Positions 5,031 through 17,236 of a stretch of DNA of 64,000 nt are shown one piece after another. Made by a program: the position numbers and the translations under genes. The notes under the pieces are model-generated. The model did not search any database. It was not told the origin of the DNA and saw only the letters and a list, made by a program, of their open reading frames with translations. Each line of letters starts with the position of its first letter. The stretch's first letter is position 1. Source of the stretch: Candidatus Aenigmatarchaeota archaeon (GTDB lineage: Archaea > Aenigmatarchaeota > Aenigmatarchaeia > Aenigmatarchaeales > Aenigmatarchaeaceae); the NCBI GenBank assembly GCA_043802485.1, contig JAZDKZ010000006.1:2670-66669 (forward strand). Direction: 5' to 3'.

Positions 5031-5099
5031 ATGTGTTGCTGCTGCGGTTGTAAGGACAAGAAAGCCAAGAAGAAGACAACAAAGAAAAAGAAGAAATAA
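5031..5099 (+). CDS. 22-aa Cys/Lys-rich microprotein MCCCCGCKDKKAKKKTTKKKKK
   Basis: ATG..TAA frame, TTTATAAA about 25 nt upstream (leaderless layout), biased composition. Confidence 0.6.
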   Translation: MCCCCGCKDKKAKKKTTKKKKK

Positions 5100-6005: not shown

Positions 6006-6542
6006 ATGGCTTTTAAAATAAAAATACAGAACATTGTTGCATGCGCTTCTTTAGGTATTAAGATAAATCTTGATAAAGTTACGTCTCTTATTGACAACAC
6101 TGAGTATGAACCAAACCAGTTTCCCGGTCTGGTCATGAGATTAAAACAACCAAAGGCAGCTGCTTTGATTTTTTCTTCAGGTAAAATAGTTTGCACAGGA
6201 ACTAAATCTCCAAAAGAGGCAAAAATAGCTATAGCAAAGGTTGTTAAAAAGATTAGAGGAATAGGATTCAAAGCTCCTGAAAACTATAAAGTCAATTTAG
6301 TAAATATTGTTGTTTCAACGAAGCTTGATTTGAAAATAAATTTGAATCAAATAGCATTTAGTTTAGAGAATACGGAATACGAACCCAATCAATTCCCAGG
6401 TTTGGTTTATAGAATGAGAGACCCCAAGGTTACATTCTTGTTGTTCGGCAGTGGCAGTATTATTTGTACAGGAGCTAAAAATGTTGCAGATGTGAAAAGG
6501 AGTATAGAAAAACTTTATAAGAATTTAAAGGAAGTAGAGTGA
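6006..6542 (+). CDS. tbp: TATA-box-binding protein
   Basis: Two direct repeats of EYEPNQFPGLV.R...PK..L.F.SG.I.CTG.K. Confidence 0.97.
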   Translation: MAFKIKIQNIVACASLGIKINLDKVTSLIDNTEYEPNQFPGLVMRLKQPKAAALIFSSGKIVCTGTKSPKEAKIAIAKVVKKIRGIGFKAPENYKVNLVNIVVSTKLDLKINLNQIAFSLENTEYEPNQFPGLVYRMRDPKVTFLLFGSGSIICTGAKNVADVKRSIEKLYKNLKEVE

Positions 6543-6710
6543 TTAAATCTCTTTATTTTTTAGATACTCATAAATTGTTACGATTTATGTCTACACACAG
6601 AATGTAGTGCTTTAATTATGCCCATCACCGCCAATTTCAAATAATTTTCAATAGGTTTGAATGTCAAGCATACAATTACTTTTTTATATTTTCGCTTCTA
6701 ATATTCTTTC

Positions 6711-6770
6711 ATGGCAAAGGGATTTATTACAAAAAACAATCTGTTATCCCTAGAGCTACTTCTGTTATAG
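6711..6770 (+). CDS. Leu-rich leader peptide (MAKGFITKNNLLSLELLLL) upstream of leuA
   Basis: 19-codon ORF with 7 Leu in the last 9 codons; TTTTTATA about 25 nt upstream; ends 76 nt before leuA. Confidence 0.75.
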   Translation: MAKGFITKNNLLSLELLLL

Positions 6771-6843
6771 TCTAGTCCGTATTTTCTGGGCTAGGAATTG
6801 TTGATCGTATAGATCCAATTCTATCCCAGATTGATTATAGCAG
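6762..6843 (+). promoter_or_regulatory. Putative attenuator RNA structure
   Basis: CTGTTATAGTC (6762-6772) pairs with GATTATAGCAG (6833-6843), enclosing hairpin TCTGGG..GAATTG..GATC/GATC..CAATTC..CCCAGA (6785-6830). Confidence 0.6.
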
Positions 6844-6846
6844 TAA

Positions 6847-8418
6847 ATGGTGTTGAGAATGAGAAGAGAAAAAATACTAATATTTGACACGACCCTGAGA
6901 GACGGCGAGCAGGCAAGCGGCTTCCATATGTATCCTGAGCAGAAGCTGGAGATAGCAAAGGACCTTGCCAGCATGGGCGTTGACATAATGGAGGTGGGAA
7001 ATCCCATATCCTCTCCAGGCGATTACAAGGCTGTAAGAAGAATCTGTGAGCATGTAAAAGGGCCTACAATAGCAGCCCTTGCAAGATGCGTTGATGCTGA
7101 CATAGAGTCTGCATGCACTGCTCTGGAACCAGCCATCCGAAGAGGTAAAGGAAGAGTCCATGTCTACATTGCAACCAGCAACATACACACAGAGAAGAAG
7201 CTGAGAAAAAGCAGGGAAAATGTAATGGACATGGTGCACAAGAACGTCAGCAAGGCCAGAGAGTTTACAGACGACATCCAATTCTCTCCAGAGGACTTTA
7301 CCAGAAGCGAACATAGATACACGGTTGATGTGATAAGCAGGGCAATAGAAGCAGGAGCCAAGACAATAAACCTTCCTGATACTGTTGGCTACAGCATAAT
7401 GTCTGAGACAAGAGGAAAGGTTCAGAGAACAATAGATGATGTAAAGGACAAGACAGGAAGAGATGACATCGTCTACAGCATACACTGTCACAATGACATT
7501 GGTCTTGCAACAGCCAACACAATAGAGGCCATTCTTGGCGGTGCTAGGCAGCTTGAGGTGACTGTAAACGGTATTGGCGAAAGGGCAGGCAATGCTGCAT
7601 TGGAGGAATGTGTTGCAATAATCAGGGAGAGACCTGATTATTTTGAGAAAGAGCTTGGGTACAACGTCTACACCAACATAGAAACTAAAAAAATATTTGG
7701 CATAAGCAGAAAGGTAGCTAGCTTTACAAACTCCAATCCTCAAAGGAACAAGGCAATAGTTGGGAACAATGCCTTTTCACATGAGGCAGGCGTTCACCAA
7801 GACGGCATGACCAAGGATTCTAGAACATACGAATGGATAAACCCAAAGGATTATGGAGCAAGGAGCAAGCTTACCTTTGGTCCAAGGTCAGGAAGAAAGG
7901 GATTAATGGAAGCTTACAGAAAGATGGGAATCAAATTAAATAACGGCGACTTGTTCAACAATGTCTTTGAAAGGTTCACTGCTATTGCAGATAGGGAGAA
8001 GGAGATAGACCACTATCACCTTGCAAATGCTTTGTCAGGAAAAGCTATGATACCTTACTATAAACTGGTGTCAGCGAAAACATGGTCTGACAATAGTGGG
8101 GGAAGTGCTAGAATAGTTCTTAGTATCGATGGAAGACATCAAGTCAGGTCATCCTCAGGCAGCGGAATGATAGACGCGTCAGTAAAGGCAATAAACTCAA
8201 TAACAGGCTACAGGACAGATATCATCGATTACAAGTCCATATCAGCAGCAATTGGATCCAAATCAAAGGGTGTGGAAACAGTTGTTGTGAGAAACAACGG
8301 CTTTGAGGTAGGTGGTCACGGCTGCGACAGCGATGTTGTAATGGGATCGATAAAGGCTTATGTTGATGCTGTCAATAAAATCAGATATGTTTCAGATACA
8401 TTCAAAGAATACTTTTAA
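6847..8418 (+). CDS. leuA: 2-isopropylmalate synthase
   Basis: FDTTLRDGEQ, HCHNDIG, NGIGERAGN, HEAGVHQDG motifs plus C-terminal regulatory domain; start may be ATG 6859. Confidence 0.9.
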   Translation: MVLRMRREKILIFDTTLRDGEQASGFHMYPEQKLEIAKDLASMGVDIMEVGNPISSPGDYKAVRRICEHVKGPTIAALARCVDADIESACTALEPAIRRGKGRVHVYIATSNIHTEKKLRKSRENVMDMVHKNVSKAREFTDDIQFSPEDFTRSEHRYTVDVISRAIEAGAKTINLPDTVGYSIMSETRGKVQRTIDDVKDKTGRDDIVYSIHCHNDIGLATANTIEAILGGARQLEVTVNGIGERAGNAALEECVAIIRERPDYFEKELGYNVYTNIETKKIFGISRKVASFTNSNPQRNKAIVGNNAFSHEAGVHQDGMTKDSRTYEWINPKDYGARSKLTFGPRSGRKGLMEAYRKMGIKLNNGDLFNNVFERFTAIADREKEIDHYHLANALSGKAMIPYYKLVSAKTWSDNSGGSARIVLSIDGRHQVRSSSGSGMIDASVKAINSITGYRTDIIDYKSISAAIGSKSKGVETVVVRNNGFEVGGHGCDSDVVMGSIKAYVDAVNKIRYVSDTFKEYF

Positions 8419-8673: not shown

Positions 8674-9282
8674 ATGATTGACTTCAAGCTCTGGAAGGAC
8701 GCCCTGCTAAAGCCGAAGCAAACCTTCAAGAAACAGAAGCCCAAGGCAGACCTGGGCGTTGCCATGAAGAATGTTGCAATCGCCGGGCTGATAACAGGCA
8801 TCATTATGGGCCTGGTCGAGTTGAACCTTCTGAGCTTTGCTTTCAACATAGTTTTCTATCCCATAGTCATGGTTGTCTCGCTTCTGCTAAACTCCCTTCT
8901 GTATCATGTTTTTGCCCGCCTTCTGGGAGGCAAGGGAAACTATAACACGCAGACCTATCTGATAGCTCTTTACAGCGCACCCATGTCTATCATGAGTTCG
9001 ATAGTATCTATTCCCCTTTTGTCCATGACAGAAGAAAATCTCTTTAACAACTTGCCTGTGTTGGTTCTAGTCGTAATTGCAAGCATGGTAGTTGGCATCT
9101 ATTCGCTTTACCTTCTGATTCAGAGCCTGAAGGAGACCCATTCTATAAGCACTGGCAGGGCTTTCCTGACAGCCATCGTCCCGGCGCTGTTGTTAATGTT
9201 GTTGATAATAGCAGGCGTCTTGGTCTACTACGGTCTTTTCATGCCTGCGGCATACGAGATAGCGCTGCCTTCTACTGTTTAA
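8674..9282 (+). CDS. Yip1-family membrane protein
   Basis: N-terminal LLKPKQTF, ARLLGGKG motif, about 5 transmembrane helices. Confidence 0.8.
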   Translation: MIDFKLWKDALLKPKQTFKKQKPKADLGVAMKNVAIAGLITGIIMGLVELNLLSFAFNIVFYPIVMVVSLLLNSLLYHVFARLLGGKGNYNTQTYLIALYSAPMSIMSSIVSIPLLSMTEENLFNNLPVLVLVVIASMVVGIYSLYLLIQSLKETHSISTGRAFLTAIVPALLLMLLIIAGVLVYYGLFMPAAYEIALPSTV

Positions 9283-9322: not shown

Positions 9323-9916
9323 ATGTGTTTCAAAACTCTAAAATCAATCCTGACAAACCCTGCTGAAGCTATCAGCAAGGCGAAAAAGTCAAAGAATGTT
9401 TCTGAGACATTATGGATACTTTTCCTGTCGTTTGTCATGATAGGAGCAGGGCTTTCCATAGTTTCCCTTGGTATGTTCACTGCCGTGGTGTCAGCAGCTG
9501 TCGGGATAACCATACTTTTGTTGGGTTCGCTGTTCAGCGCCTTTTTAGGCTACCTGCTTTCGATTGTGATGAACATTCTGGGAGGCAAAGGCAAGGTTAA
9601 AGACGGTCTTGCAGTAGTGTCGTACAGCATATTTCCGATATCGATTGCTGTTTTGGTGACTGCTCTGCTATCAATGATACATCCAACCATAGGTTTTTTG
9701 GGCTTTATTTTGATGGCAGTTCAGACAGCTTTAGGATTCTCAATCTACTTTAGAGCAGTCAAAGAATTGTTCAAGACGGACATGGTAAGGGTCCTGATAG
9801 GCTTTTTGATAATGATTTACGTCATCATGATATCCGCTTACCTTACGCTTGCCATATCGTCTAGCACTGTCCTGCCCTTCTTCAGCGAGATGATGATGCC
9901 TTTGGGTCTTGCCTGA
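9323..9916 (+). CDS. Yip1-family membrane protein (tandem paralog)
   Basis: ILTNPAEAI, ILGGKG motif, about 5 transmembrane helices. Confidence 0.8.
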   Translation: MCFKTLKSILTNPAEAISKAKKSKNVSETLWILFLSFVMIGAGLSIVSLGMFTAVVSAAVGITILLLGSLFSAFLGYLLSIVMNILGGKGKVKDGLAVVSYSIFPISIAVLVTALLSMIHPTIGFLGFILMAVQTALGFSIYFRAVKELFKTDMVRVLIGFLIMIYVIMISAYLTLAISSSTVLPFFSEMMMPLGLA

Positions 9917-10426: not shown

Positions 10427-10900
10427 ATGGCAGAGAAAAGGGTGCTGTTCGTTCCGCATTGCATTCTCAATCCTGATGTCAACGACAATTCAAAATCCAC
10501 AAACGAGATTGTAAGGATGATTACCGAGTCGGGCGTTGGCATAGTGCAGCTGCCCTGTCCTATGATAGAGTACAACAGGAAGCTAGTTAGAGAGACCCGC
10601 AAGTCCAAGAGATACGGCGAATACTGCAGGCAGCTCTCGATAAAGATACTGAGCGACATAAAGAAATATCTGGACGCTGACTACAAGGTTCTCGGTGTCA
10701 TGGGCATAGAGTTCTCTGTCTCTTGCGGCGTGCACCACACCAGAAAGAGCAACAGAAAGGTTCTTGGAAAGGGCTTGCTCATTGACGAGCTTGAGAAGGG
10801 AATGCAGCAGAGGAACTTTCAGGTTCCCATCCTGTCGGCAAACTTTGAGAACGTCTTTTCAACGCTGAAGAAAATAGACTTGCTGATTAAAAACAATTGA
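10427..10900 (+). CDS. TudS/DUF523-related putative Fe-S protein
   Basis: HCILN, QLPCP, G.EFSVSCGV Cys triad; paralog at 24787-25293. Confidence 0.7.
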   Translation: MAEKRVLFVPHCILNPDVNDNSKSTNEIVRMITESGVGIVQLPCPMIEYNRKLVRETRKSKRYGEYCRQLSIKILSDIKKYLDADYKVLGVMGIEFSVSCGVHHTRKSNRKVLGKGLLIDELEKGMQQRNFQVPILSANFENVFSTLKKIDLLIKNN

Positions 10901-11117: not shown

Positions 11118-12203
11118 TTGTTCGATTTCCAGCAGCTGGTTTCGGATCTTAGTGAGGAAAGACTGTTGCCGTCGGTTCCCTCAAAGCCTGACCGGGTGGG
11201 GCTGCTAAGGACCACTGACAGTTTTTTCAAGGATATGGAAAGCAGGCGGATATATCCCAAGGAGCTGGACAGCCCGCTGGGCTGCCAGCTGGAGCTGACG
11301 CACAGATGCAATTTGAAATGCAAGCAGTGCTACAACATGTCCGGCTGCTCCAAGCCGGACATTTCAATCAAGAGGTGGATGGATGTTGCCAAGCAGCTGG
11401 TGGACATGAACATGTTCGAGTGCGTTATATCTGGGGGCGAGCCGCTGCTCCTCGGGGACAAGCTGTACGAACTGATGGATGTCCTGCATGACAGCGGAAT
11501 GAGGTTCGTGCTCGTCACCAACGGGATGCTTATGGATGAAAAGGTCATTGACAAGCTGAGCAAGTACGACTACTACTGGGTCCAGGTGAGCATTGACGGC
11601 TCAAAGCCCCAGATACATGATAGTATAAGGGGTGTGAAGGGAAGCTGGAAAAAGGCTGTCAATGCAGCAAAGCTGGTGTCCCAGTCAGGGATGCCTTTGG
11701 TCATTTCCCATGTGTTACAGAGGGAGAATGTAGACCATATCGATGAGATGATTGAGACGTCGTATGTTCTTGGCGCTAGGAGGCTGATAACAGGCAAGTT
11801 CACGTTTTCCGGCAGGGCGATAACCAACAAGGATGACATAGGAATCGACGAGAAGAAACTGAAAAAAGCCTTTAGTCTATTGAAGACCAGGCACGACCAA
11901 TACACGGGAAGCATGGAGATAGTCACTTCGACAGACCCTGCATTCTATCTCAGGTACAGGATACTCGAGCCTTGCAATGTTCTGTTGGTAAGGCCGAACG
12001 GAGACGTCAAGCTGGACTGCATACTACCCTTCAAGATAGGCAATGTGAAGAATGAGAGCATCTCCAGTATGTGGAACAAAGTTGGAAAGTCTGCCTGGAG
12101 AAACGAGCAGGTGATAAGGTACATAAGCTCGATAAAGGAGGAGAGTGATATGTTGAAGGTCCGACCAAGGCCTTACATAGACGAGGACATTCTGATAAGG
12201 TGA
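11118..12203 (+). CDS. Radical SAM peptide maturase-like enzyme with reduced SPASM/Twitch domain
   Basis: CNLKCKQC, SGGEPLL, TNG, VSIDG, HD.IRG motifs; C-terminal PC..LLVRPNGDV..C...IGNV. Confidence 0.9.
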   Translation: MFDFQQLVSDLSEERLLPSVPSKPDRVGLLRTTDSFFKDMESRRIYPKELDSPLGCQLELTHRCNLKCKQCYNMSGCSKPDISIKRWMDVAKQLVDMNMFECVISGGEPLLLGDKLYELMDVLHDSGMRFVLVTNGMLMDEKVIDKLSKYDYYWVQVSIDGSKPQIHDSIRGVKGSWKKAVNAAKLVSQSGMPLVISHVLQRENVDHIDEMIETSYVLGARRLITGKFTFSGRAITNKDDIGIDEKKLKKAFSLLKTRHDQYTGSMEIVTSTDPAFYLRYRILEPCNVLLVRPNGDVKLDCILPFKIGNVKNESISSMWNKVGKSAWRNEQVIRYISSIKEESDMLKVRPRPYIDEDILIR

Positions 12204-13785: not shown

Positions 13786-14811
13786 CTATATCTGGAAAAA
13801 ACTGCCGAAAAAGAACTGTATCATAAGGTGGGACAGGAAGAAGACTGCCAAGGCCCCCAGCATGAAGAGCGGTATGAACTTTACGCCGTTCTTCTCAGTT
13901 CCTGTCTGTATCAGGCCTGTTATCAAAGCCCCGAAGAACGTGGTTGTTGATATTGATGCTATGGCAAACCAGAAGAGCTGGTCAGGCGTTATCTGCGGCG
14001 CCCCTGCCTTGGCCAGAAGCCCGCCACCCATACCACCGCTAGACAGTTCTATGCCGCCCAGGATTTCAGGCGACCATAGAGTGGTCATGACCTCGATGAA
14101 GAACAGGCTGAGCGAATAGAGCATGGGCGCGCCCAGGACTGCTGCGAAAACTATGAATATCGAATAGGTTGTGACAGATGCCTTTATCTCCTTCTTCACT
14201 GACTGCGTAACCCTGATGTTGTTGGCTGTCTCCTCCAGTAAATTGGCCAGCTCGCCTCCAGACTCTATGCCCTCTATCAGCAATCTCACCGCCTTGTCCA
14301 GAATGTCTGACTTTATCTTTTCTCTTATCTCTAAAAGGGCCATTTTTATCGACTTGCCGCCTACAGTCTTTGCCCCGACCCTTCTTATCTCCTCCTCGAA
14401 TATGCCGAACTCTGGCCTTGCTGCAAGCCATATGGCCCTGTCGACTGTCATGCCTGCCCTTATGTTGGCTGACATGAGCTGCAAAGCATCAGGCAGGACC
14501 TTCTCCACTTCTGCTGCCCTAGAGTCTGCTATCAGTATGATCAGCACCTGGATGATCACCAGAGCGAGCGCCCCTGAGCCAAGCCCCAGCGCTATGCCGC
14601 TCAACCCCCAGCCTATCATGTAAAGGTCGAAGGCGATTACCACCCCTAGAAGCACTGAAAAGAAGAAGGTGAACCCTATGAACCTCTCTATTATCTTCTC
14701 GTTCACGCCAGCATACACAAGTTCCTTTTTCAGCTTCTGCTTGTACTTTATTGGTGTAAAGTAGAACAGCCTTTCCCTTATCCTGCCGACATTTATTTTT
14801 TTCAGCTTCAT
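13786..14811 (-). CDS. Type IV pilus platform protein (TadC/GspF family)
   Basis: LPDALQLMSANIRAG, EGIESGGEL motifs; multiple transmembrane helices. Confidence 0.88.
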   Translation of the reverse strand: MKLKKINVGRIRERLFYFTPIKYKQKLKKELVYAGVNEKIIERFIGFTFFFSVLLGVVIAFDLYMIGWGLSGIALGLGSGALALVIIQVLIILIADSRAAEVEKVLPDALQLMSANIRAGMTVDRAIWLAARPEFGIFEEEIRRVGAKTVGGKSIKMALLEIREKIKSDILDKAVRLLIEGIESGGELANLLEETANNIRVTQSVKKEIKASVTTYSIFIVFAAVLGAPMLYSLSLFFIEVMTTLWSPEILGGIELSSGGMGGGLLAKAGAPQITPDQLFWFAIASISTTTFFGALITGLIQTGTEKNGVKFIPLFMLGALAVFFLSHLMIQFFFGSFFQI

Positions 14812-15684
14812 CTATTTCACCATCATAGGCCTCTTGGTCTTTATCACGCCCATGTAAAAATACTGGAACACGGACAATACCACGATTATCATGGGGAATA
14901 TCATAAGCGGAATCTCCAGGCCGGAGAACGAAGTGAGTATTATCAGGAAGGTTGTGCCCAGCGTGGGCATTATCACGGCAACAAGCATGTACATAAGCGT
15001 GTAGGGCCCCAGCTCCTGCCCGTACTTTCTTATGCCTATCAGCTGCTCCTTTGTCAGGTTCTTGACGATTGATTGCAATGTCACGGCGACATCGCTTCCA
15101 GACTTCATGGAATTGGTGAGCTGCCATATGGCCCTTCTGAAATGTAGCGAGGGATTCCTCAGAGACGCCTTTTCAAAGGCCTTGATCATTGACAGGCCTG
15201 CGTTTATCTCCATGAGTATGGTCTTGAACTCCTGGCTTATCTCGCCGTATCCATCACTGACGCTAATTATTGAATTGAAAAGCGGGACGCCAGACTTTAT
15301 TTCTATGAGTATGTGGTCCAGGGAGTTCAAAAGGTCTGCCTCTAGCTTCTTCATCCTTCTGGCAGCCATCAGCTTTGGAAACCTAAGCAGGTAGTTGAAA
15401 ACAAATATGGAAAAAACAGAGCCTATCCCCAGAGGAAGAAGCAGCTCAGGCCTTCCTACTATAAGCCCTACCAGAAATATGAGGAGCGTCAAGACGCAGA
15501 AATAGAAGAAAGACGTCAAAGCGACTATGGACGCATAAACCTTGGGATGTATGTTGATCTCTGCCTGATAGAGGTCTAATTTCAATGATGGGTGGGACTT
15601 CCAGATGACATTGCCTGCCCTATCGAATATCTTTGCTTCTTTCATGGCCTTCCTTATAGGGAATGGCACGAATGGTATTATCAT
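14812..15684 (-). CDS. Type IV pilus platform protein (TadB/GspF family)
   Basis: IKSGVPL..YGEISQEF..SMKSGSDV motifs. Confidence 0.88.
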   Translation of the reverse strand: MIIPFVPFPIRKAMKEAKIFDRAGNVIWKSHPSLKLDLYQAEINIHPKVYASIVALTSFFYFCVLTLLIFLVGLIVGRPELLLPLGIGSVFSIFVFNYLLRFPKLMAARRMKKLEADLLNSLDHILIEIKSGVPLFNSIISVSDGYGEISQEFKTILMEINAGLSMIKAFEKASLRNPSLHFRRAIWQLTNSMKSGSDVAVTLQSIVKNLTKEQLIGIRKYGQELGPYTLMYMLVAVIMPTLGTTFLIILTSFSGLEIPLMIFPMIIVVLSVFQYFYMGVIKTKRPMMVK

Positions 15685-15685
15685 T

Positions 15686-17236
15686 TCAATCAGCTTTTTC
15701 TTTCAGTTCGCTCATCAAATTTTTTCCTACTAACAGCTCCGCGTTGCCGTTGGAGTTGACCACTTTCATTACCTTTTCCCTGTCATGGTAGTATTCTGCC
15801 ACCACCTTACCCACAGTGTTGACAGTCATTATTCTCTTCTCCAACATCCATTGCAATATCTTTTCCTTCTCCTTCAGGTCGTCCTTCATATCGTCGTCGG
15901 TCATACCTGTGTGCAGCCTTATCTCGTTCAGCAGACGGACGCTGTTCCTCACCTTTTCTATTGTGTCTGTTGCAGGCCTCCACCTGTATAGCAACTCCAG
16001 TCTTGATGAGAATATGGTCCTGCCAGCTTCCCCTGGGATGAACTCGGCTACTTCCAGAGTTCTCCTTATGCCGTATTTCCTGTGCCTGTATTGTACAATA
16101 ACCAGGTGCAATGATTCAAGCAAGCTCTCGGGCAGGTTTATGGGCGGGTTTGTCAATCTTCGGACAACCTGCTCTGCCCTATCAGCGTGCAGTGTAGCAT
16201 AAACGCTGTGACCGGTGTGCATAGCCTCGAATAGAACTTCAGCCTCGCTTTGCCTTCTGATTTCTCCTACTACAATCCTGTCAGGTCTCATTCTCAGCGA
16301 GTTCACTAACAAATCAAGCATTGACACCTCTCCCTTTCCCTCAGGGTTGGCCTCTCTTGTTGTCAAGGGAATCCAATGTAAAAAGTCTGGTAGCCTCAGT
16401 TCCCTCGTGTCCTCTATTGATATTAGCCTCTGGTTCGGCGGCATGAACGCCATTAGCGCGTTGAGTATGGAAGTCTTTCCAGAGGCTGTTCCTCCTGCGA
16501 CCAGAATGTTCAGCTCGTACTGTATGCACAGCCAGAGCAAGGCAGCGACTTCTGGCGAGATGGTCTTGGTCTTCGGGTCTATGAAATGAATTATAGTCCA
16601 TGGATCTCTCCTGAACTTTCTTATCGTTATGGTGTTTCCTTTTGTGGATATGGGAAACAGCGTAGCATTGACTCTGTCCCCTGTTGTCAGGTGGGCGTCC
16701 ATCAGGGGATTAAGATTGGTTATCTGCCTGCCCACCTTCCTTCCGATCAGGCTGGCATAGTTGTATATCTGCTCCTCTGTGGGGACTGACAGGTTGGTCT
16801 TAAGCCAGCCGAGTTCCTTGTGGAAGACCCAGACAGTTTCAGAGGAGTTGTTGATGACAAGCTCCTCCAGATTTGCATCCATCAAAAGGATCTCCAGTCT
16901 TCCTAGGCCGAGCATCTCGTGGACAAGATGACCTGCCAAGATGTTCTTCTGGTTCTCTGAAAGCGCCGGAAGCTCCAATGATATGGCCTCCCTTGCGCTG
17001 TCGATGAACCTTTCCTTTATGCCCTCGGCTGCCTTGGGGTCCAGAATCTCAGAAATCTTGATCTTGACAACCTCAACCAGCCTCTCCTTTATGGAATCGA
17101 GAATAGCCTGGGTTGCCGGCTCTATGGTCGGGAACTTTACGTCGTAGATTGGTGTGTATTCGTCAGGCTTTTTGATTATTGTTACCTCTCCAGGAACATT
17201 CTCAGCAATTACAGTATAGCTTCCTATTACTTCCAT
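15686..17236 (-). CDS. Type IV pilus assembly ATPase (CpaF/VirB11 family)
   Basis: Walker A GGTASGKT, SIEDTREL, LRMRPDRIVVGEIR, MHTGH. Confidence 0.95.
   Translation of the reverse strand: MEVIGSYTVIAENVPGEVTIIKKPDEYTPIYDVKFPTIEPATQAILDSIKERLVEVVKIKISEILDPKAAEGIKERFIDSAREAISLELPALSENQKNILAGHLVHEMLGLGRLEILLMDANLEELVINNSSETVWVFHKELGWLKTNLSVPTEEQIYNYASLIGRKVGRQITNLNPLMDAHLTTGDRVNATLFPISTKGNTITIRKFRRDPWTIIHFIDPKTKTISPEVAALLWLCIQYELNILVAGGTASGKTSILNALMAFMPPNQRLISIEDTRELRLPDFLHWIPLTTREANPEGKGEVSMLDLLVNSLRMRPDRIVVGEIRRQSEAEVLFEAMHTGHSVYATLHADRAEQVVRRLTNPPINLPESLLESLHLVIVQYRHRKYGIRRTLEVAEFIPGEAGRTIFSSRLELLYRWRPATDTIEKVRNSVRLLNEIRLHTGMTDDDMKDDLKEKEKILQWMLEKRIMTVNTVGKVVAEYYHDREKVMKVVNSNGNAELLVGKNLMSELKEKAD

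Follow-up and report, generated by a model that had tools for sequence, protein, structure and literature searches.

We describe a leader that precedes leuA, the gene for 2-isopropylmalate synthase, in 64,000 nucleotides of a Candidatus Aenigmatarchaeota archaeon genome (assembly GCA_043802485.1, contig JAZDKZ010000006.1, positions 2,670 to 66,669), hereafter the window. It comprises an apparently leaderless upstream open reading frame (uORF) that ends in a leucine-rich tract, followed by RNA predicted to fold into a hairpin enclosed by a basal stem. Judged from the DNA alone, the leader is probably a ribosome-sensed leucine sensor with a translational output through the basal stem at leuA, and we give this complete reading a probability of roughly 55%. 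Its core idea, that a leaderless Leu-rich open reading frame (ORF) would act as a ribosome-based leucine sensor for an archaeal leuA, is strongly supported, because the uORF is kept in frame in an orthologue, the design recurs at 18 archaeal LeuA loci and the tract switches to isoleucine before the gene for a CimA-type paralogue. The step in which stalling would open an 11-bp stem to allow leuA initiation is plausible only.

A probably leaderless, leucine-rich frame upstream of leuA

The uORF lies at 6711..6770 on the forward strand and encodes MAKGFITKNNLLSLELLLL in 19 sense codons, with the stop codon TAG at 6768-6770. It is co-oriented with leuA, and 88 nt separate its stop from the leuA start codon at 6859. 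The Leu tract (6741..6767, forward strand; CTG TTA tcc CTA gag CTA CTT CTG TTA), which is the presumed stalling site, holds seven Leu in nine codons. A preliminary description of this DNA had reported a 19-codon uORF ending LLSLELLLL with four kinds of Leu codon, and this is borne out, the seven Leu codons being CTG (two), TTA (two), CTA (two) and CTT (one). TTA and CTA, the rarest two Leu codons in the genome's long ORFs (8% and 9%, respectively), make up four of the seven. Such a frame is exceptional in the genome. In a census of ATG-initiated short ORFs of 10-35 codons, taken from all six frames of the whole 769-kb assembly (n = 9223), an LLLL run is present in 45, while six or more Leu in the last nine codons are found in a single ORF, namely this uORF. 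Among the 277 short ORFs of the genome with leaderless geometry, it ranks first, with the strongest hydrophobic single-residue tail.

A TATA-like box, TTTTTATATT, is located at 6681..6690 on the forward strand, with hexamers that start at -29, -28 and -27 from the uORF ATG. Across 548 crudely called genes of the assembly, TATA-like hexamers number 31, 45, 52 and 37 at positions -31 to -28 from the ATG, over a background of about 5, and this pile-up indicates that leaderless starts are the norm in this genome. The position of the uORF box matches the genome-wide peak, so that the box reported near 6681 is present and stands at the genome's leaderless distance. From this promoter geometry, the uORF looks like the 5' end of a leaderless mRNA.

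The downstream gene has a different start. In the same 548 genes, tetramers resembling the Shine-Dalgarno (SD) sequence peak at -12 to -9 from the ATG, and leuA itself carries such a tetramer, GGTG (6849..6852, forward strand), at -10, while the -31 to -28 peak position is free of TATA hexamers. leuA (6859..8418, forward strand) encodes a 2-isopropylmalate synthase with the LeuA allosteric domain that matches NCBIfam model NF002086 at 552.6 bits (cut-off 532), with PF00682, PF22617 and PF08502 as the Pfam domains on record. The start is most likely ATG 6859 rather than ATG 6847, because of both the database gene call (519 amino acids) and the SD geometry; ATG 6847 is a possible alternative, and the database entry of a 78%-identical homologue includes the same MVLRM extension. 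Among homologues with a named source, the closest LeuA comes from an Aenigmatarchaeota metagenome-assembled genome (MAG).

Leucine and isoleucine leaders across archaea

LeuA is rare among the relatives of this organism, being present in 2 of the 41 genomes sampled from the same genus, family and order, and in 5 of 371 genomes of its phylum. One of these loci, L142 (genome G322), belongs to another family with a much higher G+C content and encodes a LeuA that is 65% identical. It carries a homologous uORF, MAEGFRDRNTGISLGLLLLLLQ, that differs from that of the window by indels of 3 nt and 9 nt, which keep the frame, and the sequence TTTTTAT starts exactly 30 nt before its ATG. A closer relative, about 93% identical, was found in contigs of two other studies (runs X4 and X5) that cover 6679-7049, with homology beginning at 6679, at the TATA box. 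Here, the only change within the 60 nt of the uORF is 6741 C>A (Leu11 to Met), and no substitution falls in the predicted helix P1 or in either strand of the 11-bp stem, both described below. The hairpin has five substitutions, an extra A is inserted after 6844, just 3' of the stem strand, and 11 or more substitutions fall in the 170 nt of leuA coding sequence that follow. This comparison shows a leader under apparent constraint, though without covariation. The upstream regions of the LeuA homologues P0002 (78%), P0003 (72%), P0004 (65%) and P0005 (56%) lie outside the comparison. Searching for related loci with the window LeuA returned only a 37% bacterial match, searching with P0004 returned 56 distant, mostly bacterial loci, and a metagenome scan, for which universal motifs were chosen, yielded LeuA loci of at most 48% identity.

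One archaeal metagenome contig, L061, has a PCNA gene adjoining and a LeuA that is 48% identical. Its uORF, MVSTTINNKKQFQLALVLLLL, has TTTTTAT at -30, and a hairpin overlaps the uORF stop codon. A second phylum, sampled via a Nanoarchaeota MAG (L146, G371), provided a larger set. LeuA is present in 16 of its 401 genomes, and in 14 of these 16 an upstream short ORF ends in a Leu or Leu/Val run 0-2 codons before the stop. The two misses are L162, which is truncated at the 5' end of the gene, and L151, which has only ~250 nt of upstream sequence. One locus, L158 (genome G617), is unpublished; without it the count is 13 of 15, and the leader tallies given here, including that of the 18 leaders, hold with it removed.

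Together with the window, L142, L061 and L147, these 14 loci make up 18 archaeal Leu leaders, and they support the proposed conservation of the Leu run. All 18 have a pyrimidine-rich tract in the Leu frame, read from a start codon to a stop 0-2 codons past the run. In 16, a TATA-like hexamer stands at -33 to -27 from an in-frame ATG; of the remaining two, L149 has an SD-led uORF together with a second, TATA-led Leu uORF further upstream, and L164 is unclear. No Leu uORF was found at the archaeal LeuA-like loci L062, L143, L144 and L151. As a within-locus control, we counted short ORFs with at least six Leu in the last nine codons (nested starts counted) at 22 loci. Within the 330 nt that precede leuA, 23 of 65 short ORFs qualify, as do 3 of 1661 elsewhere on both strands (179,520 nt). 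Per nucleotide, this amounts to a roughly 200-fold association with leuA relative to the remainder of these loci. Two of the three outside matches are nested starts of one L147 ORF that lies just further upstream of leuA.

A MAFFT alignment of 15 of the 18 uORFs, leaving out L147, L149 and L164 as too long or atypical, contains a nucleotide core, TTGCTAGYTYTGCTTCTG, at the tract start that is common to leaders of both phyla, while the peptide is poorly conserved outside the tract. When searched with up to three mismatches in 171 loci, the core had exact matches only in these leaders. Rfam cmscan of 6400-7000 gave four chance-level matches at E up to 10 and no leader family, and at the gathering threshold the 18 related loci gave only archaeal signal recognition particle (SRP) RNA, located elsewhere in two loci. 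In two genomes of the second phylum, the unit of Leu leader and leuA is immediately preceded by a gene for archaeal SRP RNA (L155, 957-1231, forward strand; L164, 3986-4256, reverse strand).

Several leaders are compound. In L146 (~2430-2510) there is a second, SD-led ORF of 20 codons whose stop overlaps the leuA start region, and L147 (122-185 and 248-379) and L149 each have two tandem Leu-rich uORFs upstream of leuA. On a bacterial-looking soil metagenome contig, L109, the leader (2810-2896) before a 39%-identical LeuA has the same nonapeptide, LLSLELLLL, as the window.

The genome also encodes a paralogue of LeuA (contig C1, L003:1477-3000, reverse strand; 507 amino acids, 30% identical), whose best NCBIfam match is (R)-citramalate synthase CimA at 469.6 bits, below the cut-off of 950, with the next match at 319.9 bits. 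Citramalate synthase catalyses the opening reaction of isoleucine synthesis from pyruvate. Upstream of this gene is an Ile/Thr-rich uORF, MKTAIIPTFFETTRRIIIQ, in the L003 2990-3130 region (reverse strand), 36 nt before the SD-led start. It is leaderless-looking, with AATAAATA at -30 to -23. CimA-type paralogues occur in 6 of 371 genomes of the window's phylum, and a small frame containing a K(I/V)II(I) run recurs at four of the other five loci (two starting with ATG, one with GTG and one with ATA in the start position), the fifth being without it. In the second phylum, the paralogue is present in 7 of 401 genomes, and all seven loci have a uORF that ends in an Ile run by the stop codon, for example MIAAQKITAIISRIIIPAIIIH, with a TATA-like box at about -33 in each.

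We compared the last nine codons of the 18 Leu leaders with those of eight Ile leaders, comprising the CimA-type leader of this genome and the seven second-phylum loci. The Leu leaders have 4-8 Leu and 0-1 Ile, and the Ile leaders have 3-7 Ile and 0-2 Leu, without overlap. Both kinds of leader occur in four genomes, one of which has the two genes adjacent, each with its own leader. Because the tracts use several synonymous codons, up to six for Leu and three for Ile, it is the amino acid, not a nucleotide word, that is conserved. This switch, Leu before LeuA and Ile before CimA, is the strongest evidence that ribosomes may read these frames as amino-acid sensors.

Predicted RNA structure and the proposed coupling to leuA

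Three elements are predicted in the window leader. In minimum-free-energy folds, a helix inside the uORF, P1, pairs 6712-6715 with 6755-6758 and 6718-6723 with 6746-6751 (span 6712..6758, forward strand), which brings the 5' end of the mRNA onto the tract start. An apical hairpin at 6785..6830 (forward strand) begins 14 nt 3' of the uORF stop and folds with -18.8 kcal/mol in a 63-nt segment (z = -3.18 against dinucleotide shuffles). Enclosing this hairpin is a basal stem of 11 bp, formed in the minimum-free-energy fold by the last two Leu codons, the stop codon and two further nucleotides (6762..6772, forward strand) with 6833..6843 (forward strand), which ends 5 nt before the leuA SD. The duplex of the tract with the 40 nt preceding leuA is better than 98% of those from dinucleotide shuffles (p = 0.02), and the fold of the whole leader is modest (z = -1.99, with 8 of 200 shuffles folding equally well). 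No U-tract follows either the hairpin or the basal stem in the window. The hairpin, the 11-bp pairing and the lack of a U-tract had all been described beforehand and hold on analysis, as does the placing of the stem directly 5' of the leuA start region, with the start codon itself now favoured at 6859.

Based on these elements, we propose the following mechanism. The archaeal TATA box would fire a leaderless mRNA whose first 60 nt are the 19-codon leader ORF and which would form one transcription unit with leuA. Ribosomes translating the leader would report the supply of charged tRNA-Leu, and scarcity would cause them to stall in the tract. A stalled ribosome would occupy the 5' strand of the 11-bp stem, which would otherwise close a large stem-loop whose end is 5 nt from the SD. 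The ribosome-binding site of leuA, which we take to reach about -20 (~6839) and thus to overlap the 3' strand of the stem, would then be approached through single-stranded RNA, and initiation would rise, as in translational attenuation. When Leu is plentiful, termination on the uORF would be quick, and the tract would re-pair as P1 and the basal stem, giving less leuA translation. We infer each of the three steps, namely translation of the uORF, stalling, and, above all, conversion of stalling into LeuA synthesis. Frame conservation, the in-frame indels and the leaderless promoter geometry lend indirect support to the first two.

Features of this kind are partly shared. P1 is common to the window and L142, where the 5' end GGCA.AGGGAU folds onto the tract start AUCCCUAG.GC, and analogous helices between the 5' end and the tract start are found in most leaders. 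The MAFFT alignment captured the tract core and not the 5' strand of P1, and P1 was evaluated by cognate against non-cognate duplexes instead of column-wise covariation; cognate duplexes averaged -11.8 kcal/mol and non-cognate duplexes -10.5 kcal/mol (permutation p = 0.027, with kin among the leaders that are not independent). The sequence TTTCTGGGCTAG is present in the apical hairpin of the window and also after the L142 uORF. In L142, the base of a large stem-loop is formed by the tract CUUCU pairing with GGAAG of a strong leuA SD, so that here the stem overlaps the SD. A hairpin that starts no more than 3 nt from the stop codon is present in 16 of 18 Leu leaders and 7 of 8 Ile leaders. A simulated ribosome footprint clearly opens the SD only in L142, L158, L164 and L163, and not in the window.

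A number of observations weigh against the stem-opening model. The basal stem of the window excludes both the SD and the start codon of leuA, and the predicted SD accessibility, 0.51 in the free RNA, is 0.44 when a ribosome footprint covers the tract and 0.55 when it covers the stop. Simulated stalling therefore gives no rise, and folding with and without a footprint, which had been suggested as a check, goes against the prediction. The earlier proposal of control by Leu stalling thus stands in part: conservation and the Leu/Ile switch favour a Leu sensor, whereas the fall in accessibility from 0.51 to 0.44 speaks against the stem-opening step. Stem covariation, a further suggested check, is not seen in the ~93% relative: both stem strands are unchanged, and its substitutions are not compensatory; two of the five in the hairpin break a predicted pair, one gives a G-U and two are unpaired. 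Across the family, pairing of the tract with the region around the SD exceeds that of shuffled sequences in no more than two of the 18 Leu leaders and one of the eight Ile leaders (z averaging about -0.5), and partition-function folds predict it in 8 of 18 Leu leaders. P1 and the stop-adjacent hairpin are general in the family yet are left unexplained by the stem model. Furthermore, some leaders are kin (L160/L161, L154/L157, L158/L159 and window/L142), and so are not independent; ATTATA at 6834-6839 is TATA-like and could be a weak second promoter; and metatranscriptome run X6, which contained 5% of the sampled words, gave no coverage of the leader, the only organism-identical contig lying inside leuA at 7099-7234 and possibly representing DNA carry-over. 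Finally, a Leu-regulated LeuA in an organism that apparently lacks the downstream pathway is a puzzle.

The leading alternative retains the leaderless Leu-tract sensor and changes its output. Stalling would alter the amount of full-length mRNA, either by premature transcription termination (oligo-U or factor-dependent) or pausing at or beyond the stop-adjacent hairpin, or by protecting the 5' end from 5'-to-3' decay in competition with P1. We regard this as a serious rival, though a less likely one. It accounts for features that, family-wide, sit at the uORF end and not at the SD, as the stop-adjacent hairpins do, for P1 tying the 5' end of the mRNA to the tract, and for tract-to-SD pairing not being general. 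Control of the transcript would also be economical in the three genomes that have a multi-gene leu cluster under the leader. A ribosome at the stop must melt the stop-adjacent hairpin and a stall early in the tract leaves it intact, and for this reason the hairpin looks like the real switch point; no scheme with the right sign was derived, as in simple kinetic schemes stalling lowers read-through, the opposite of what a biosynthetic gene would need. Archaeal transcription terminates at oligo-U, and U5-U6 runs occur in L154 and in the Ile-leader loci L172, L174 and L176, which is in favour of an mRNA-level output; these runs sit inside the hairpin loop. Against it counts that no consistent U-tract follows the hairpins of the other leaders, as none does in the window. 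A U-tract terminator, with no U-tracts after the hairpins, was ruled out.

A second alternative, which we consider improbable, is that the leader is a structured RNA or a DNA site for a regulatory protein or ligand and that the frame is not sensed. This is what the authors of the actinobacterial LEU element proposed for their case, judging classical attenuation unlikely and suggesting a protein, according to the accessible part of that paper (PMC1262725). Here, the core TTGCTAGYTYTGCTTCTG is kept across two phyla beyond the amino-acid level and conserved helices exist, which is in favour of this reading. The frame itself argues otherwise: the tract is in the Leu frame from start to stop in 18 of 18 Leu leaders, it is written in as many as six synonymous Leu or three Ile codons, the window and L142 differ by indels whose lengths are divisible by three, the amino acid of the tract follows the enzyme, and there is no Rfam match. 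Least probable is a chance ORF or a hydrophobic micropeptide with its own function beside a leuA with its own promoter, since, although the peptides are short with a basic N-terminus and a hydrophobic C-terminus and ATTATA at 6834-6839 is TATA-like, with 5-13 residues the hydrophobic run could not cross a membrane, the peptide is poorly conserved outside the tract, the association with leuA is ~200-fold, the Leu/Ile switch with the downstream enzyme is unexpected for a generic micropeptide, and leuA starts behind an SD at -10 without a TATA hexamer at -31 to -28.

Genomic setting and comparison with known systems

The source assembly (G000) comprises 769 kb in 7 contigs at 43% G+C, with a completeness estimate of 89%, and the genes for TATA-box-binding protein (TBP) and PCNA, the TATA promoters and the assembly size indicate that the host is an archaeon with a very small genome. 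In the window, the TBP gene (6006-6542, forward strand) is upstream of the leader, and the promoter box, uORF, hairpin and basal stem are all contained in the 304-nt gap between TBP and leuA. Downstream of leuA are tandem Yip1-domain membrane proteins (8674-9282 and 9323-9916, forward strand), and beyond these a TudS-related putative desulfidase (10427-10900) and a radical SAM/SPASM protein (11118-12203). As the downstream genes include no leu genes, leuA appears to be monocistronic here. Elsewhere in the window, 13786-17236 (reverse strand) encodes a T2SSE/PilB-type ATPase together with two membrane proteins of the T2SSF family, a cluster that resembles the assembly systems of type IV pili or archaella. 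At 5031-5099 (forward strand; G000 C6:7700-7768), a short ORF with leaderless geometry, MCCCCGCKDKKAKKKTTKKKKK, has four Cys and then a Lys-rich tail, and a second Lys-rich ORF of this geometry, MATKKKKTAKSKKKAKKKGKKKKK, is located outside the window at G000 C6:224411-224485.

Within G000, at 89% completeness, we found no Iso_dh (LeuB), Aconitase (LeuC), Aconitase_C (LeuD), Aminotran_4 (IlvE) or ILVD_EDD (IlvD) family member. The same searches were positive in 13 or 14 of 14 control genomes, and leuBCD and the partner genes are likely to be truly absent from G000. Iso_dh was also not found in G322, G422, G639 and G737. In three of five genomes checked (G408, G447 and G490), the leuA that carries the leader is followed on its own strand, after 2-3 kb, by a LeuC-family (Aconitase) gene and in G490 also by a LeuB-family (Iso_dh) gene. 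Because these genes follow leuA, the leader heads leu gene clusters in larger genomes; in the most reduced genomes, it persists before what look like orphan LeuA and CimA genes.

Leader-peptide attenuation is a textbook bacterial mechanism that relies on coupled transcription and translation, and we know of no documented case of archaeal ribosomes acting as amino-acid sensors in the style of attenuation. Tentatively, and with somewhat less confidence than in the leucine sensor of the window, we suggest that DPANN-type archaea of at least two phyla have a family of ribosome-sensed leaders (Leu for leuA, Ile for cimA) on leaderless mRNAs, which may differ from a terminator/antiterminator switch and whose hallmarks would be P1 and a stop-abutting hairpin. 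If true, this would be the first attenuation-type regulatory system described in Archaea. Reduced genomes would then control LeuA and CimA after losing the rest of the pathways, hinting that a symbiont tunes intermediates to its own tRNA charging, and raising the question of why genome-reduced archaea retain a regulated LeuA and CimA without the remaining pathway. The locus is a concrete, testable case: the contrast of Leu/LeuA with Ile/CimA supplies a natural control for specificity, some 30 related leaders are available to guide mutational design, and archaeal model organisms are suited to its leaderless layout. It also offers a handle on translation-transcription coupling and on the control of leaderless initiation in archaea. 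In the full-text literature, which leaves most subscription journals and supplements outside, we found no account of archaeal leader-peptide or uORF amino-acid attenuation, nor of LeuA regulation in DPANN. In a term search, attenuation, attenuator and leader peptide were absent from a review of archaeal transcription-translation coupling (PMC8116511).

Among validated systems, the mycobacterial Ms5788A, a leaderless poly-Cys small ORF (sORF) whose 3' tract pairs with the SD region of the next gene to give translational regulation (bioRxiv 10.1101/834739), bears several likenesses to the window leader. As far as the accessible text of that work goes, both have a sORF as the first cistron, leaderless there and apparently so here, a cognate tract at the 3' end of the sORF, a very stable duplex, predicted here, that involves the tract and the region before the next SD, and no terminator, and in both the output is at translation initiation, shown there and proposed here. 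The differences are that Ms5788A is bacterial and responds to cysteine, whereas here an archaeal TATA-box promoter and leucine are involved; that 5 nt separate the window stem from the SD, and only some members of the family show pairing between tract and SD; and that P1 and the stop-adjacent hairpin are features of the archaeal family that the accessible part of the Ms5788A account does not report.

The LeuA encoded here matches the short bacterial-type model NF002086, unlike the long form that is characteristic of Actinobacteria. In actinobacterial genomes, the LEU element (Seliverstov et al. 2005, PMC1262725), in so far as the accessible part of its description extends, places a uORF with a Leu run before leuA, with a base stem between the Leu run and the SD and no obvious terminator. 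The likeness therefore lies in a Leu-run uORF before leuA and a compact structure with a base stem, without an obvious terminator. The LEU element is, however, defined by a conserved pseudoknot in Actinobacteria, and in that same part of the paper its authors doubted leader translation as the signal. Here, in an archaeon, neither sequence similarity nor an Rfam match to it was detected, no pseudoknot having been sought, and the two are alike in architecture alone. The conserved frame and the switch between Leu and Ile speak for translation as the signal here.

The classical leu, ilv, thr, trp and his attenuators likewise have a short leader ORF, rich in codons for the end product, before the first biosynthetic gene, with separate cognate leaders for each pathway and alternative RNA helices. 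Many bacterial LeuA loci that we fetched have classic Leu leaders, for example with peptides ending QLLLLRLLP. Those attenuators combine a terminator hairpin, a U-tract and bacterial RNA polymerase, whereas here no U-tract follows the hairpin, the mRNA is archaeal and probably leaderless, and in every case the tract occupies the very 3' end of the ORF, beside the stop. With the broad class of leader attenuators, the window leader shares a co-oriented upstream ORF and a pathway-specific enrichment of cognate codons. By analogy, the element reads as one that would function like a bacterial leader-peptide attenuator, closest to the translational kind that has no terminator.

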